Under the pieces are notes generated by a model. It was not told the DNA's origin. It was given only the letters and a program-made list of their open reading frames with translations, and made no database searches. Shown here one piece after another: positions 20,262 through 63,102 of a stretch of DNA of 64,000 nt. Position numbers and translations under genes: made by a program. How positions within the stretch are numbered: the stretch's first letter is position 1; every line of letters starts with the position of its first letter. Where the stretch lies: assembly GCF_036507355.1 (NCBI RefSeq), contig NZ_AP027877.1, one strand, 5' to 3'. The DNA is from Escherichia coli (GTDB taxonomy: Bacteria; Pseudomonadota; Gammaproteobacteria; Enterobacterales; Enterobacteriaceae).

Positions 20262-21632
20262 ATGGAAGGTCAACAGCACGGCGAGCAGCTAAAGCGCGGC
20301 CTTAAAAACCGCCATATTCAGCTTATCGCGCTGGGTGGCGCGATAGGGACAGGGCTATTCCTGGGTAGCGCCTCCGTAATACAGTCCGCAGGGCCAGGGA
20401 TTATCCTGGGTTACGCCATTGCTGGTTTTATCGCCTTTCTGATCATGCGTCAGCTGGGTGAAATGGTGGTCGAAGAACCTGTCGCAGGCTCCTTTAGCCA
20501 CTTTGCTTATAAATACTGGGGCAGCTTTGCTGGCTTCGCTTCTGGCTGGAACTACTGGGTACTGTACGTTTTAGTTGCCATGGCAGAGCTGACTGCTGTG
20601 GGTAAATACATTCAGTTCTGGTATCCGGAAATCCCAACCTGGGTTTCTGCCGCCGTGTTCTTTGTGGTGATCAACGCCATCAACCTGACAAACGTAAAAG
20701 TGTTTGGTGAGATGGAGTTCTGGTTTGCCATTATCAAAGTTATCGCAGTGGTAGCGATGATCATCTTCGGCGGCTGGCTGCTATTCAGTGGCAACGGCGG
20801 CCCGCAGGCGACCGTTAGCAACCTGTGGGATCAAGGTGGTTTCCTGCCGCACGGCTTCACCGGGCTGGTGATGATGATGGCGATTATCATGTTCTCGTTC
20901 GGTGGTCTGGAACTGGTGGGGATCACCGCAGCAGAAGCTGATAACCCGGAGCAAAGCATCCCGAAAGCGACCAACCAGGTTATTTACCGCATCCTGATTT
21001 TCTATATTGGTTCGTTAGCCGTTCTGCTCTCACTGATGCCGTGGACCCGCGTTACCGCCGATACCAGTCCGTTTGTGCTGATCTTCCACGAGTTAGGCGA
21101 TACCTTTGTGGCGAATGCGCTGAACATCGTGGTACTGACTGCGGCGCTCTCCGTGTACAACAGCTGCGTATATTGCAACAGCCGTATGCTGTTTGGTCTG
21201 GCACAACAGGGTAACGCGCCAAAAGCGCTGGCGTCTGTCGATAAACGCGGCGTACCGGTTAACACCATTCTGGTGTCTGCACTGGTAACGGCATTGTGCG
21301 TACTGATTAACTATCTTGCTCCGGAATCCGCATTTGGCCTGTTAATGGCGCTGGTGGTATCTGCACTGGTGATCAACTGGGCGATGATTAGCCTGGCGCA
21401 TATGAAATTCCGTCGCGCCAAGCAGGAACAAGGCGTGGTAACTCGCTTCCCTGCTCTGCTTTATCCGCTGGGTAACTGGATCTGCCTGCTGTTTATGGCG
21501 GCGGTACTGGTGATTATGCTGATGACCCCAGGAATGGCGATTTCGGTATACCTGATCCCGGTATGGCTGATCGTGTTAGGTATCGGCTATCTGTTTAAAG
21601 AGAAAACCGCCAAAGCCGTAAAAGCGCATTAA
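20262..21632 (+). CDS. aroP: Aromatic amino acid:H+ symporter (APC family)
   Basis: ORF MEGQQHGEQLKRGLKNRHIQLIALGGAIGTGLF...; full-length match to AroP. The codon immediately upstream is ATA. Confidence 0.95.
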   Translation: MEGQQHGEQLKRGLKNRHIQLIALGGAIGTGLFLGSASVIQSAGPGIILGYAIAGFIAFLIMRQLGEMVVEEPVAGSFSHFAYKYWGSFAGFASGWNYWVLYVLVAMAELTAVGKYIQFWYPEIPTWVSAAVFFVVINAINLTNVKVFGEMEFWFAIIKVIAVVAMIIFGGWLLFSGNGGPQATVSNLWDQGGFLPHGFTGLVMMMAIIMFSFGGLELVGITAAEADNPEQSIPKATNQVIYRILIFYIGSLAVLLSLMPWTRVTADTSPFVLIFHELGDTFVANALNIVVLTAALSVYNSCVYCNSRMLFGLAQQGNAPKALASVDKRGVPVNTILVSALVTALCVLINYLAPESAFGLLMALVVSALVINWAMISLAHMKFRRAKQEQGVVTRFPALLYPLGNWICLLFMAAVLVIMLMTPGMAISVYLIPVWLIVLGIGYLFKEKTAKAVKAH

Positions 21633-30169: not shown

Positions 30170-30263
30170 TGATGCCGCACGTAGGCCTGATAAGACGCGC
30201 CAGCGTCGCATCAGGCATCGTGTGCGAATGTCGGATGCGGCGAAAACGCCTTATCTGACCTAC
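30170..30263. repeat. REP/BIME-type repetitive extragenic palindromes between yacG and mutT
   Basis: GATGCCGCACGTAGGCCTGATAAGACGCGCCAGCGTCGCATCAGGCATC and GTCGGATGCGGCGAAAACGCCTTATCTGACCTAC, same family as the units after gcd. Confidence 0.7.
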
Positions 30264-30649: not shown

Positions 30650-30708
30650 TGTCTTAAACCTATAAAAAAGGCGCAGAATCCTGCGCCTTTTACTTCAACA
30701 GTTAGCTT

Positions 30709-33414
30709 TTATTGCAGGCGGCCATGGCACTGCTTGTATTTTTTACCAGAACCGCACGGGCAAGGATCGTTACGTCCTACTTTGCGCTCACCGGTTTGCG
30801 CCGCCAGTGCAGCTGCGGCTGCAGAGTCGTCATCCTGATGGCTAAGCTGCTGCATTTGCGCTAAACGCTCGGCTTCCATACGACGCTGTTGTTCCAGCTC
30901 CTCAACCTCTTCAGGCATACGTACCTGAACTTTGCTCAGCGTACTGATAACTTCATATTTCAACGACTCCAGCATCGCTGCAAACATGGAGAACGATTCA
31001 CGTTTGTATTCCTGCTTCGGATCTTTCTGTGCATAGCCACGCAGGTGGATACCCTGACGCAGATAGTCCATCGCTGCCAGGTGCTCTTTCCACAGGGAGT
31101 CAAGCGTTTGCAGCATGACGCCTTTCTCGAAGTGACGCATCATCTCAGCACCAACCACTTCTTCTTTACGCTGATACACTTCGATGGACTGCGCCAGAAT
31201 GCGCTCACGCAGCGTCTCTTCATGCAGTTCTGGTTCTTTATCCAGCCACTCGGCAATTGGCAAATCGAGGTCGAAATCGTTCTTCAGACGTTCCTGCAGC
31301 CCCGGAATATCCCACATTTCTTCCAGCGACTGTGGTGGAATGTAGGCATCAATGGTCGCTTTGAACACATCTTCACGAATGCTGTTAATGGTTTCGCTCA
31401 CATCGCTGACATCCAGCAATTCGTTACGCTGGGAGTAAATGGCACGACGCTGATCGTTAGCCACGTCATCATATTCCAGCAGTTGCTTACGAATGTCGAA
31501 GTTACGACTTTCAACTTTACGCTGGGCGTTGGCAATCGCTTTAGTCACCCACGGGTGTTCAATGGCTTCGCCTGGCTTCATACCCAGTTTACGCATCATT
31601 CCGGATACTCGGTCGGAAGCAAAAATACGCATCAGCGCATCTTCCATCGACAGGTAGAAACGGGAAGAACCAGCATCCCCCTGACGACCAGAACGACCGC
31701 GCAACTGGTTATCGATACGACGGGATTCGTGACGCTCGGTACCGATGATATGCAGGCCACCTGCTGCCAGTACCGCATCGTGACGTACCTGCCAGTCGGC
31801 TTTAATTTTTTCAATTTGCTCTGCGGTCGGATTTTCCAGCGCGGCAACTTCTGCCTGCCAGCTACCACCGAGCACAATATCTGTACCACGACCCGCCATG
31901 TTGGTCGCGATAGTCACCGCAGCCGGATAACCTGCCTGAGCAACAATCGCCGCTTCGTTGGCGTGGAATTTGGCGTTCAGGACATTGTGCTTAATACCGG
32001 CTTTGGTCAGTTCGTTTGACACCAGCTCCGATTTTTCGATGGAGATAGTACCCACCAGCACCGGCTGGCCTTTCGCAGTACGTTCTTTGATATCTTCAAT
32101 GATCGCCTGAATTTTTTCCGCTTCAGTCATGTAGACCAGGTCCGGCAGATCTTTACGAATCATTGGACGGTTGGTCGGAACAACGACGGTATCCAGTTTG
32201 TAGATGGAGCTAAATTCGAAAGCTTCGGTATCAGCAGTACCGGTCATCCCCGCCAGTTTTTCATACAGACGGAAGTAGTTCTGGAAGGTGATCGAAGCCA
32301 GCGTTTGGTTTTCATTCTGGATCTGCACACCTTCTTTCGCTTCCACAGCCTGGTGCAGACCATCGGACCAGCGACGGCCCTGCATGGTACGACCGGTGTG
32401 TTCGTCAACGATGATAACTTCACCATCTTTAACGATGTAGTCGACGTCACGGGTAAACAGCGCATGAGCGCGCAGCGCCGCCGTTACGTGGTGCATCAGC
32501 ATGATGTTGGCCGGAGAGTACAGAGACTCCCCTTCATCCATGATGCCCTCTTTCACCAGCAGTTCTTCAATCAGCACCAGACCACGTTCGGTCAGGTTCA
32601 CCTGGCGAGATTTTTCGTCCACCGAGAAGTGGCCTTCGCCCAGGAAGGTTTCGGAGTCTTCTTTTTCCTGACGGATCAGGTGCGGAATAATTTTATTCAC
32701 GCGTTTATACATTTCCGAGCTGTCTTCTGCCGGGCCGGAAATGATCAGCGGTGTACGCGCTTCATCGATCAGGATGGAGTCCACTTCGTCCACCAGCGCA
32801 TAGTGCAGTTTACGCTGTACACGTTCTTCAGGGCTGAACGCCATATTGTCGCGCAGGTAGTCAAAGCCGTATTCGTTGTTCGTACCGTAAGTGATGTCAG
32901 CTGCGTAAGCTTCGCGCTTTGCCGGTGCTGGCATGCCCGGCAGGTTGATACCGACAGTCAGGCCAAGGAATTCAAACAGCGGACGGTTGTTTTCGGCGTC
33001 ACGTTGCGCCAGGTAGTCGTTGACGGTAACTACATGCACGCCTTTACCGGTTAGTGCGTTCAGGTAAGCAGGCAGCGTTGCGGTCAGGGTTTTACCTTCA
33101 CCGGTACGCATTTCGGCGATGCAGCGTTCGTTAAGAACCATACCGCCGAGTAACTGAACGTCGAAGTGACGCATACCAAAAACGCGCTTACTTGCCTCAC
33201 GCACCACGGCGAAAGCTTCCGGGATCAGATTTTCCAGCACTTCGCCTTTTTCCAGACGCGCACGAAACTCTGCGGTTTTCCCTTTCAGTTCTTCGTCGGA
33301 GAGTTTTTCCATCTCCGGTTCCATGGCATTGATGATGTTGACCACTTTGCGCATCCGGCGCAGGGTGCGATCGTTACGACTACCGAAAACTTTAGTTAAT
33401 AATTTGATTAGCAT
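30709..33414 (-). CDS. secA: Preprotein translocase ATPase SecA (901 aa)
   Basis: [58 protein letters not shown]... full-length. Confidence 0.98.
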
Positions 33415-35235: not shown

Positions 35236-36387
35236 TTAATCAGCTTGCTTACGCAGGAATGCTGGGATATCCAGATAATCCGGCTCTTTCGCAGTTTGCG
35301 GCGCATTGTCATTCACGACTTTAGCAACCGGCTTCTGCTCCTGGGTCAGCGGAGCCATCCCGTGCTGCTGGTAGCGATCCATCACTGGCTGCTGAACCTG
35401 CTTATTGGTCACCAGAGTGATTTCAGGACGTTTGTCCATGCCGATACCTGTCGCAACAACAGTTACGCGCAGCTCGTCATTCATATCCGGGTCAAGAGAA
35501 GTACCGATAACCACGGTCGCGTTGTCGGAAGCAAATGCACGGATGGTGTTACCTACCGTTTCGAACTCATCCAGACGCAGGTCGAAGCCCGCTGTGATGT
35601 TAACCAGCACGCCGCGTGCGCCAGACAGGTCGATATCTTCCAGCAGCGGAGAAGAGATAGCCATTTCAGCAGCTTCTTCCGCACGGTCTTCACCGCTTGC
35701 CACGCCAGAACCCATCATTGCGTAGCCCATTTCAGACATTACGGTGCGTACGTCTGCAAAGTCCACGTTCATCAAACCCGGACGAGTAATCAGTTCGGCG
35801 ATACCTTGCACAGCGCCTTTCAGTACATCGTTCGCTGCGCCAAACGCATCCAGCAGGGAGATACCACGGCCCAGAACTTTCAGCAGTTTGTCGTTCGGGA
35901 TAGTGATCAGAGAGTCCACATGCTTGGACAGTTCAGTGATCCCCTGCTCCGCGAATGCCATACGCTTCTTGCCTTCAAAGTTGAAAGGCTTAGTGACGAC
36001 GGCAACGGTCAGGATACCCAAATCTTTTGCCACTTCAGCGACGACTGGTGCTGCACCTGTACCGGTACCACCACCCATACCCGCAGCAATAAAGACCATG
36101 TCTGCACCTTCCAGCGCCGCACGCAGTGCATCGCGATCCTCATCAGCCGCATTGCGGCCAACTTCTGGATTAGCGCCAGCGCCCAGTCCTTTGGTGATAC
36201 CGCTACCGATTTGAATCGTCTGTCCAACCGCTGTTTTACGCAGCGCTTGTGCATCGGTATTTACCGCGAAGAATTCAACACCTTCAATGCGCTCACGCAC
36301 CATGTGTTCAACAGCATTACCGCCGCCGCCGCCGACGCCGATGACTTTAATCACCGCGTCATTGGTAAGTTCCATTGGTTCAAACAT
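35236..36387 (-). CDS. ftsZ: Cell division GTPase FtsZ (383 aa)
   Basis: [52 protein letters not shown]... (tubulin signature GGGTGTG). Confidence 0.98.
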
Positions 36388-36447
36388 AGTTTCTCTCCGA
36401 TTTGTGCCTGTCGCCTGAGGCCGTAATCATCGTCGGCCTCATAAAAA

Positions 36448-37710
36448 TTAAAACTCTTTTCGCAGCCAACTATTGAGTCGCTTGATCCACGAGCCAACTG
36501 ATGCTGTAACACGTTTTTCTACTTCAGCTTCACCGTTAAGATGTGACTCTTTCCCATAGTGAAGCAATCCCACCGCCGTCGAATAATACGGCTCCTGAGC
36601 ATAATCCGTTAAACCGGTAATGTTCAGCGGCGCGCCGATACGCACTTGCGTATGAAACACGCGCTGAGCACAGGCTGCAAGACCTTCGATCTGCGCTGCG
36701 CCACCGGTTAATACAATGCCTGCCGCCAGGTGATGTTTAACCCCTTGTTGGCGAAGCTTTTCCTGCAACTGCAATATCTCTTCGTTGACCAGGTTGAGCA
36801 GCTCGGTATAGCGCGGCTCGATCACCTCTGCCAGGGTCTGACGTTGCAGACTCCGCGGCGGACGACCACCTACGCTCGGCACTTCCACGCTCTCATCTTT
36901 TCCAACGATGGAACCCAGCGCACAACCGTGGCGAACTTTAATCGCTTCGGCGTCGCTTGGCGGCGTGCCAAAGGCGTAAGCGATATCACTGGTCACGACA
37001 TTGCCAGCATAAGGAATTACCTTAGTGTGGCGCAATGCCCCACCGGTATAAACGGCGATATCCATTGTACCACCACCGATATCGACGACGCAGACACCCA
37101 GTTCACGTTCATCTTCCGTCAATACCGAATAACTTGATGCCAGTCCGGCAAATATCAGTTGGTCAACTTTCAGCCCACAACGTTCAACCGCTTTGACGAT
37201 GTTTTTCGCCATATCGTTGTGACATGTGATCAGGTGCACTTTTGCCTGCATCCGCACGCCCGAAAGTCCTACCGGATTCTTGATCCCTTCCTGATAGTCA
37301 ATCGCATACTCTTGCGGGATCACATGCAGCACACGATGCTCATCGCGCACACGCACCGATTTCGCGGTATGGACGACGTTTTCCACATCTTCTTGCGTCA
37401 CTTCTTCTTCAGAAATCGGCACCATACCAATTTCATTCTGGCAGCTGATGTGCTTACCAGAAAGCGCCAGATATACCGAAGAGATCTGACAATCTGCCAT
37501 CAATTCTGCCTGGTCAATGGCGCGTTGTACGCACTTGACCACGGATTCGAGGTCGTTCACCCCGCCTTTATCCATACCACGCGACGGGCAGCTGCCCACG
37601 CCAATGATATTGACCATACCGTCGGGCAGAACTTCCCCTACTAAAGCGGCAACCTTCGCGGTACCAATCTCCAGTCCTACTACCAGTTTTCTGTCCGTCG
37701 CCTTGATCAT
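36448..37710 (-). CDS. ftsA: Cell division protein FtsA (420 aa)
   Basis: [57 protein letters not shown]... Confidence 0.97.
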
Positions 37711-56062: not shown

Positions 56063-56379
56063 GGCCTGCCTCACTGTTTGACGGAAAAAATGTGTAAAAC
56101 ACATTAACCGTCCGATCTTGCTTAAGCAATTGGTAGCCAGAGACATAAACGCAGGGTAATAAGAATAAACAGGAGGAAAGGTGAAAAGAAACGATAAAAT
56201 CATCCATTACGAAGGATTAAAATGATAATAAATCGGCTGAATCCCACAACTTACAGCAATTTCTCTATTTTTTTAATTAATCCTAAAATAGAGAGCCTAC
56301 ACATTCAGAATAAAATTCTACATTCAATAAAAAATGCAGAATAAACCAGACATTGATGTCTGACCTATTCTGCATTCAG

Positions 56380-57324
56380 TTAGCGTTTGCAAATTGAGAC
56401 TAATTGCTCTTCCATCCACTGATGGCCTTTATCGCGCCCGGCAGCTTCATGCCAGGAGAGATAACAGGTTCTGCTATTTAGTTTTAACGGCAGCGGTAAT
56501 ACCTGTAATTCTAAGGATTCAGCGAACTCTTCAGCCAGCCAACGCGGCGCAATAGCGACCAAATGCGTTTGCGACACCACGCTAAGTACGCTCATCATTG
56601 CCATACCCTGATACGCGATACTGGCTTGCTTATCTACCGTATCATACCAAGGTTGACTAAATGACGCGAAACGATCGAGCGAAACCGCCGCATGTTGTTC
56701 GTTATAAACATCATGTTTCAGTAACGGGCCTTTAATTGTTGGATGATTTTTGCTGGCTACCAGCACCATTTCATCTTTAAATAATGGCACGCTGGTAAAT
56801 TCAGGACGATGGAAGTCTTCATAACTAATCACAAACTCCGTTCCCTGATAACGCAGCTGATGTTCAGTGTTCTGATTTAATGAAGACTTGAACATAACAT
56901 GTATATTTGGCGCAATCTGCTCAATGTGATTATAAATCTGCGAGGTCAGAATGCTGTCTAACGGGCTGCAAACACAAAGATGAAATACACGTTCACTGCT
57001 CGCGGGTTCAAAACCTGAACCAGGCAATTCATTTTGTACTAGTTGCAATGCCTGGCGAACTGAACCAAAAAGTTGAAATGCGCGAGCAGTCGGTTGAATA
57101 CCACGGCCATAACGAACAAAAAGCTCGTCATTAAACATCACCTTCAGGCGTGCAACAGCGTTACTGACCGCAGGTTGCGACATTCCCAGAACATGAGCGG
57201 CACGGGTAATGTTTTGCTCCTGCATCACGGCATCGAAAACGGTTAATAAGTTGAGATCGACCATGCGTAGCTGTGGCTTGCTGAACTCCGCCGTCTCTGG
57301 ATGATCTGTTTGTACCTCTGGCAT
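56380..57324 (-). CDS. leuO: LysR-family transcriptional regulator LeuO (314 aa); alternative upstream starts exist in frame
   Basis: ORF 56380..57408 trimmed to [60 protein letters not shown]... Confidence 0.92.
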
Positions 57325-57981
57325 ACTTAACTCCACTGTCACACTTAACTCCCTTTCCCTTATTGGAATGCAGAGAAATAATCCTCGAGAATATGATTTA
57401 TCATGCATATAAAATAAGAAAAAGGAAAATGAGTAAAATTAGGAAAACATAAAGATACGGGTTCTTATAAAAACAGAATCCATTGCCGTGGAAAGCGTCA
57501 CTTACCACAGCATAATAATCCATAATGTTTTTATTGCGAAAACAATCTAATCATAACTACCGCGAATACTCAATCATCCACAAAATGGATTAAATGTGCT
57601 TTTTAATAATTTATTTATATGTTTAATGCATTAATTCTTAACATTAATTGATCAATAATATTCACCAAATCAATATCAAAAAATCCGCAAAACATATAAT
57701 TCAATACAAATCATCAGGATAGGTTTTGCAACGCGTGCATTTTGTCCCCTTTTTCCTCGTGGATTAGATGCAAAAATTTATTCTGAAATATGTCAACCGA
57801 TGAAAAGCATCGGTAGTTAAGCAGAAATTAATATCGCTTGTTTTAACCACAGCAGCACAATTAGCTAATCTTACGGATGCAGAACTCATGCTGGCGGGAC
57901 GTTTTTATTGCGTCAGGGTTGACATCCGTTTTTGTATCCAGTAACTCTAAAAGCATATCGCATTCATCTGGAGCTGATTTA
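57325..57981. promoter_or_regulatory. AT-rich divergent leuO / leuLABCD control region
   Basis: About 650 bp of visibly AT-rich non-coding DNA with long A/T tracts between leuO and leuL; in E. coli and Salmonella this interval is known to hold the leuO and leu promoters and H-NS-bound silencer DNA. Confidence 0.6.
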
Positions 57982-58068
57982 ATGACTCACATCGTTCGCT
58001 TTATCGGTCTACTACTACTAAACGCATCTTCTTTGCGCGGTAGACGAGTGAGCGGCATCCAGCATTAA
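57982..58068 (+). CDS. leuL: leu operon leader peptide (28 aa) with four consecutive CUA leucine codons
   Basis: Internal ATG of ORF 57877..58068 giving [28 protein letters not shown]; the LLLL run is encoded CTA CTA CTA CTA. Confidence 0.93.
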
Positions 58069-58086
58069 GCCAGCACGCAGTCAAAC

Positions 58087-58118
58087 AAAAAACCCGCGCC
58101 ATTGCGCGGGTTTTTTTA
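58087..58118 (+). terminator. leu attenuator (intrinsic terminator) between leuL and leuA
   Basis: AAAAAACCCGCGCCATTGCGCGGGTTTTTTT: a GC stem with a 7-U tract, placed between leader peptide and leuA as in the classic leu attenuator. Confidence 0.9.
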
Positions 58119-58160
58119 TGCCCGAAGCGAGGCGCTCTAAAAGAGACAAGGACCCAAACC

Positions 58161-60823
<2,663 letters not shown>

Positions 60824-62875: not shown

Positions 62876-63102
62876 GAAAAAAGCCAGCAGATAATCACTG
62901 CTGGCGTGGCGATTAACACCAATACTCAGTCACACATGATGTCCGCAAATCAGTAGTCAGAATGACTCCCCTCCCACTGCATCAGTTCTTCAAGCATGGT
63001 TAATCGTTGTGGGACGCTTAACCAACGCAACCAGCACAACTGCGCTGTCGCGGTAAAATAGTGCTGATAAAACTGACGCATGGGGCACCTCCTTGCTTCA
63101 TC
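62876..63102 (-). ncRNA. sgrS: Small RNA SgrS (glucose-phosphate stress sRNA; dual-function, encodes SgrT); ends approximate
   Basis: Minus strand starts GATGAAGCAAGGAGGTGCCCCATGCGTCAG..., contains the ptsG-pairing seed GAGTATTGGTGT and ends in a terminator hairpin CCAGCAGTGATTATCTGCTGG plus U-tract; sits 67 bp from the divergent sgrR start, as in K-12. Confidence 0.88.
62950..63081 (-). CDS. sgrT: Small protein SgrT (43 aa) encoded within SgrS
   Basis: C-terminal part of ORF 62950..63249: MRQFYQHYFTATAQLCWLRWLSVPQRLTMLEELMQWEGSHSDY, with an AGGAGG RBS upstream. Confidence 0.85.
   Translation of the reverse strand: MRQFYQHYFTATAQLCWLRWLSVPQRLTMLEELMQWEGSHSDY

Follow-up and report, generated by a model that had tools for sequence, protein, structure and literature searches.

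The leucine operons of Escherichia coli K-12 and Salmonella are preceded by the leu leader and attenuator (Rfam RF00512), in which a 28-aa leader peptide with four CUA codons is combined with the protector/preemptor/terminator logic 43 nt upstream of leuA. The trp, his, thr, phe, and ilvGMEDA attenuators resemble it in having a short leader ORF enriched in the cognate codons, hairpins that exclude each other, and an intrinsic terminator. On the other hand, leuL carries only four control codons and uses a rare codon, whereas the others use common or intermediate codons (PMC1183508). Leucine limitation was found to increase read-through in both K-12 and Salmonella, as summarized in PMC1183508 with reference to Carter 1986 and Bartkus 1991, and, according to the same account, the Salmonella leader became less sensitive to leucine limitation when CUG was put in place of CUA (Carter et al., 1986). 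In the selective-charging theory, CUA is favoured for being read by the tRNA isoacceptor of which charging is most sensitive to leucine limitation (PMC1183508), and this argument refines the historical 'rare codon' explanation of the CUA run.

The gene divergent from the leucine operon, leuO, is a well-studied target of silencing. Its promoters P1 and P2 in E. coli are repressed by H-NS and StpA, BglJ-RcsB activates P2, and LeuO regulates its own gene (PMC5025477 and PMC3950696, both citing Stratmann et al., 2012 for the H-NS/StpA-silenced P1 and P2). In Salmonella, leuO is kept silent by H-NS bound at a defined nucleation region in the promoter DNA, and the silencing is lifted by upstream transcription and supercoiling; the concepts of the 'promoter relay' and of a 72-bp AT-rich silencer originated from the same region (PMC6797219, PMC10981669, PMC4264507; the original works are Chen et al., 2001 and 2005, and Fang & Wu, 1998, as cited in PMC4264507 and PMC6797219). 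For both E. coli K-12 and Salmonella, H-NS/StpA have been reported to occupy this DNA and leuO to be derepressed in hns stpA mutants (PMC5025477, PMC3950696, PMC6797219, PMC10981669).

We analyzed a 64-kb stretch of DNA (hereafter the window), in which leuO (314 aa; 56380-57324, minus strand, with the start codon at 57322-57324) and leuA, the first structural gene under the attenuator (58161-59732, plus strand), were found as ORFs, the former being annotated likewise in the RefSeq records of K-12 and FRIK1989. The proteins are 99% (LeuO) and 99.8% (LeuA) identical to the K-12 counterparts. Between the two genes are the divergent intergenic interval of 657 bp at 57325-57981 (hereafter the spacer; GC 0.33) and the 28-codon ORF of the leader peptide, leuL, at 57982-58068 on the plus strand, recognized from its translation and the RefSeq leuL annotation. 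An 836-base query over the region had a single match in 5,399 of the 5,426 complete E. coli genomes, with leuL annotated beneath it. The stretch is E. coli chromosomal DNA, and we regard it as very probable, with little room for doubt, that its ilvIH-leuO-leuLABCD cluster holds two known control devices side by side, a ribosome-mediated transcription attenuator and an AT-rich spacer that silences leuO. The 266 bp comprising the promoter, leader, and terminator (57895-58160) are base-for-base identical to K-12, and we detected no difference between the two leaders, which are the same element in different E. coli strains. The leuO regulatory region also occupies the orthologous position between the same flanking genes, with the same composition, a similar length (657 bp versus 659 bp in K-12), and 96.4% identity, but differs by 22 substitutions and two single-base indels, all of which fall in 57325-57894 (95.8% identity). 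The gene identities, leader peptide, CUA control codons, and attenuator proposed in a preliminary description of this DNA, made from the letters alone, were borne out by Rfam, the RefSeq annotation, the identity to K-12, and the conservation across species. The interval of '650 bp' given there was essentially right, and its remark that all of this is known biology is well taken, as the element is identical or nearly so to the K-12 reference. Nothing in the leuO-leuL region departs from established biology, and the main use of the present analysis is a confirmed annotation that matters little beyond that.

The leuL ORF is preceded by a GGAG Shine-Dalgarno sequence (57970-57973) located 8 nt ahead of its ATG, and codons 10-13 (58009-58020, plus strand) are four consecutive CTA (CUA) leucine codons, as had been read before. 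CTA is indeed the rarest leucine codon in the window, accounting for 59 of the 1,740 leucine codons in 41 long ORFs (3.4%), and the probability of four in a row from codon usage alone is approximately 1e-6. No other run of three or more CTA codons occurs in the 64 kb. Two rare arginine codons, AGA and CGA, are adjacent to each other at 58042-58047 in leuL, where they form part of the 3' strand (GGUAGAC...) of the protector helix, and may be fixed by RNA pairing, not by translation.

The leader RNA matched RF00512 at 57968-58117 on the plus strand over the full length of the model (positions 1-148 of 148), scoring 145.8 bits (E = 1.8e-33; gathering score, 50). The predicted fold of the leader has a free energy of -58.3 kcal/mol (z = -4.4 versus shuffles). 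Its 3' end, as judged from the sequence and folding, is an intrinsic terminator at 58087-58117 on the plus strand, AAAAAACCCGCGC-CAUU-GCGCGGGUUUUUU, with a 13-bp stem (arms 58087-58099 and 58104-58116), a G+C core of CCCGCGC/GCGCGGG, a CAUU loop, and a run of exactly seven T residues (58111-58117); 43 nt separate the terminator end from the ATG of leuA. The attenuator hairpin followed by seven U residues, which had been noticed in the preliminary description, thus holds in both the stem and the Rfam score. The Thr, Phe, and Trp leader models gave weak, sub-threshold Rfam matches over the terminator. As the terminator is symmetric (A6-stem-T7), a sub-threshold Leu_leader match was also found on the minus strand (58086-58140, 33.9 bits), and the same hairpin could in principle stop antisense transcription from leuA as well.

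We computed the alternative folds of the leader with the ribosome footprint masked. In the free leader RNA, the terminator was accompanied by a long protector helix spanning 57968-58080. In constrained folds of the nascent RNA, the 'region 2' hexamer GCGCGG (58035-58040, plus strand) pairs either upstream, as a part of the protector, or with CCGCGC (58094-58099), as the preemptor or antiterminator. When the CUA codons were masked and the nascent RNA extended to the terminator loop, GCGCGG paired with CCGCGC in silico; the preemptor did not form in the nascent fold without the masking of the CUA codons. In the full-length equilibrium folds, the terminator was always retained and never replaced by the antiterminator, regardless of whether the ribosome was masked. 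The antiterminator is therefore supported kinetically only, as is expected of a kinetic switch. What this analysis established is the anatomy of the element, the family to which it belongs, its alternative pairings in silico, and the conservation across species described below.

If the mechanism known from the literature is applied to this leader, the ribosome would enter the 28-codon leuL behind the RNA polymerase. With ample charged tRNA-Leu, it would clear the four CUA codons and GCGCGG would stay masked or paired upstream, so that the 13-bp/U7 terminator would form in leucine-replete cells and end transcription ahead of leuA. When leucine is scarce, a ribosome stalled at the CUA run would free GCGCGG, which would then pair with CCGCGC, the terminator's 5' arm, while the 3' arm has yet to be synthesized, and transcription would read through into leuABCD. 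This response to leucine is taken from the published work on the attenuator, which is the textbook case of amino-acid sensing by ribosome stalling.

To compare the leaders across species, the species-representative genomes were scanned with the exact terminator pattern, by which the leucine codons were not pre-selected, and at least 120 loci were retrieved. Among the matches listed, which include neither Salmonella nor Klebsiella, at least 43 loci adjoin leuA, and 41 leaders (40 distinct ones) were obtained from approximately 39 species of Enterobacterales plus an Enterovibrio. In the 41 leaders from the matches listed, the leucine run is three to four codons long, and CTA makes up 129 of the 147 control codons (88%), with CTT or CTC as the remainder; none of the 147 is CTG, TTA, or TTG. 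CTA accounts for 0.5% of the leucines in leuA at these loci, again among the matches listed. The leaders with a main run of three leucine codons (L010, L014, L022, L024, and others) bear two additional leucine codons, mostly CTA CTN, just upstream. The extra pair is set off by a single Gly or a similar residue, giving the pattern RLLGLLLNAS and five control codons in total.

The conservation extends to the pairing partners. The Arg-Gly codons bearing GCGCGG are CGC GGN in all of the 41 leaders among the matches listed. All of the 39 aligned leaders (among the matches listed) contain GCGCGG unchanged and retain the six preemptor pairs, although the 3' side of the preemptor and the terminator were fixed by the search pattern, and thus these pairs attest to conservation, not to covariation. 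For 34 of the 41 leaders among the matches listed, the preemptor was predicted to form in the nascent RNA. When the protector of E. coli was projected onto the aligned leaders among the matches listed, 70% of the positions were paired, versus 36-43% with slid partners; its inner helices were 95-98% paired and the outer ones 50-68%.

As the CUA codons lie partly in the protector, we considered that they may have been conserved mainly as a strand of the helix GUCUACU (58007-58013):GGUAGAC (58039-58045), not for the supply of tRNA. This helix is 94.7% paired across the 39 leaders among the matches listed, and the departures to CTT or CTC occur mostly in the last control codons, outside the helix. 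Nevertheless, the helix takes in no more than the first CUA plus two bases of the next one, and CTA still predominates at the third and fourth codons, which are unpaired and in no case the common CTG among the matches listed. Furthermore, the substitution of CUG for CUA weakened the response to leucine limitation in Salmonella (Carter et al., 1986, as described in PMC1183508). Helix pairing is therefore unlikely to be the main reason for the CUA run, and the two constraints, pairing and tRNA supply, are compatible and not mutually exclusive. The contrast between 88% and 0.5% CTA and the invariance of GCGCGG, as well as the maintained length and AT-richness of the spacer (see below), illustrate known principles and make no discovery.

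The promoter of the leucine operon is in the part of the spacer closest to leuL. The -35 hexamer TTGACA was read from the sequence at 57919-57924 (plus strand), and GTTGACA is conserved across genera. The -10 element is likely TAACTC at 57942-57947, which lies at a 17-bp spacing and matches the consensus poorly, and the start of transcription is predicted near 57955, approximately 27 nt upstream of leuL. The block at 57935-57972 (plus strand), comprising the -10 region, the start site, and the first bases of the leader, is the most conserved in the spacer (up to 0.87) and is identical to K-12. Near leuO, the best-conserved block was found at 57385-57445 (minus strand; cross-genus conservation of 0.64-0.75 versus the mean of 0.50). 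This block is probably the leuO core promoter or P2 region, and its position fits the start of leuO transcription in Salmonella, which, as derived from PMC10981669, precedes the ATG by no more than roughly 120 nt. Other conserved blocks in the spacer are at 57325-57345, adjoining the start of leuO, 57545-57575, and 57854-57867. A search by eye for the BglJ-RcsB core wwTTCykA yielded no convincing candidate in the spacer. A scan for consensus promoters and terminators failed to list both the leu promoter, due to its poor -10 (TAACTC), and the attenuator terminator, probably because the A-U extension of the stem consumes the T run. Both misses look like limits of the tool rather than biology. 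As the scan overlooked known elements of the leu region, negative results from it are weak evidence.

No other stretch of the 64 kb is as AT-rich as the spacer. Its GC content of 0.33 compares with 0.524 for the whole window, and a lower value was obtained for only three of 63,343 equally long windows, each of them overlapping the spacer. In a 200-bp scan of the 64 kb, the minimum GC content also falls within the spacer, at 57512-57711 (GC 0.225), and this core bears the strongest AA/TT periodicity of the spacer at approximately 10.75-11 bp, as a sub-region picked post hoc. TpA steps are twice as frequent in the spacer as in the window (0.088 versus 0.041). The description of the spacer as 'strikingly AT-rich' is fully justified by these values.

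The low GC content is typical of foreign, H-NS-targeted DNA, and the spacer could for this reason be taken for a horizontally acquired insert. However, the region sits at a single chromosomal place in the 5,399 of 5,426 E. coli genomes mentioned above, and keeps its place between leuO and leuL across the Enterobacterales among the matches listed, a synteny that effectively refutes an insert. Neither flanking repeats nor features of mobile elements were found, and a repeat search of the spacer returned only short two-copy matches, as expected in AT-rich DNA. We give practically no credence to an origin by horizontal transfer.

An unannotated gene, either for a small protein or for an sRNA, might also be concealed in the spacer, in which nine ORFs of 20-41 aa and one sigma-70-like site per strand (near 57512-57540 on the minus strand and 57489-57516 on the plus strand) are present. 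Nevertheless, only one of the nine ORFs remains intact outside E. albertii, namely in Pseudescherichia, the spacer has no match to an Rfam family even at E <= 1, and the promoter-like sites are fewer than expected from shuffles (3 versus 5.6). A hidden gene is thus highly improbable, and we continue to regard the spacer as control DNA. Hidden small ORFs and other Rfam families were searched for in the spacer, and nothing was found.

The spacer diverges faster than its neighbours. The part at 57325-57894 is 95.8% identical to K-12, versus 98.5% for leuA and 98.8% for leuO, and the spacer as a whole is 82% identical to that of E. albertii, though LeuA is 98.9% identical between the two, and approximately 61% identical to that of Citrobacter. 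Together with the modest phasing and an H-NS motif that is not clearly enriched (see below), this divergence would be expected if the spacer were weakly constrained DNA between divergent promoters, of which the composition stems from a mutational bias toward AT. On the other hand, the spacers of the 28 loci that carry leuO among the matches listed have kept a length of 427-721 bp and a GC content of 0.19-0.44 in spite of the turnover of their sequences. The GC content of leuA in the same 28 loci is 0.39-0.62, and the spacer is lower than leuA by 0.10-0.32 across the species among the matches listed. In the group of Escherichia, Citrobacter, Enterobacter, and Kluyvera, the ranges are as narrow as 614-659 bp and 0.32-0.39, also among the matches listed. 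A mutational bias has to account for the spacer being the most AT-rich DNA of the 64 kb as well, and both genetics and ChIP in the literature demonstrated the binding of H-NS and silencing at leuO (PMC5025477, PMC6797219, PMC10981669). Altogether, we consider mutational bias a very improbable explanation, only slightly less so than a hidden gene, and prefer to read the spacer as AT-rich control DNA silenced by H-NS, a role known from the literature (PMC5025477, PMC6797219).

The signals of H-NS other than composition were modest in the spacer. Homopolymeric A/T tracts of four or more residues number 21, versus 14.7 +/- 2.6 in dinucleotide-preserving shuffles (p ~0.009). The power spectrum of AA/TT peaks at 10.75 bp with p ~0.03 within the band of 10-11.5 bp, but is non-significant (p = 0.22) when all periods are allowed. 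The 'phased A/T tracts' of the preliminary description, as well as the curvature that it proposed to check, for which we used A-tract phasing, therefore hold for the excess of tracts and within the helical band, but not over all periods. The phasing signal is concentrated at 57575-57725, a sub-region picked post hoc, and the best 150-bp window of the spacer ranks 10th of 6,385 in the window and third among distinct loci, behind the aroP-pdhR and ilvI-leuO spacers. The prediction of H-NS motifs, also proposed there, gave no clear signal: the high-affinity consensus TCGATAAATT has two matches with two mismatches each (57608 and 57646) and none better in the spacer, and the density of its matches is not clearly above the background of the window. 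As the consensus is not clearly enriched and the phasing is modest, the case for H-NS from the sequence is based on composition, and the role of H-NS depends on the published experiments. The earlier view of the spacer as H-NS-bound DNA agrees with the published work on E. coli and Salmonella, with strong support from AT-richness and moderate support from phasing.

If the occupancy and the P1/P2 promoters described in the literature apply here, the divergent leuO promoters would lie within the spacer under a coat of H-NS and StpA that keeps leuO silent, and the silencing would be opposed by LeuO, by BglJ-RcsB, and by transcription-driven supercoiling (the 'promoter relay'). This DNA upstream of leuO belongs to the standard model of H-NS silencing and of supercoiling-mediated promoter coupling. 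We tentatively suggest, with the doubts outweighing our confidence to some extent, that the spacer may be selected across Enterobacterales for its length and base composition, not for its sequence, as a platform for H-NS and a topological insulator between leuO and leuLABCD. If so, the 22 substitutions and two indels relative to K-12 would be functionally neutral.

Two other intergenic regions in the window are also AT-rich. The second most AT-rich stretch is at 19651-20308 (GC 0.374), placed between aroP and pdhR by the RefSeq annotation, and contains the strongest helically phased AA/TT signal in the 64 kb (19871-20020). The ilvI-leuO spacer (56071-56379) is likewise AT-rich, with a GC content of 0.285 at 56158-56357, and bears the second-highest AA/TT phasing of the window at 56131-56280. 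The latter spacer also contains the yabR ORF (56181-56225, plus strand), which has 14 codons and a GTG start, and of which the FRIK1989 counterpart is annotated as a pseudogene ('too short'). A terminator-like hairpin with a 20-bp stem directly follows leuO, running from 56377 to 56332 on the minus strand.

Besides the leu leader, five RNAs scored above the Rfam gathering score elsewhere in the window: tp2 (18796-18909, plus strand), naRNA4 (30184-30260, minus strand), STnc40 (30664-30733, minus strand), a PssrA-like sRNA (36379-36468, minus strand), and SgrS (62876-63102, minus strand), the last with 226.6 bits.
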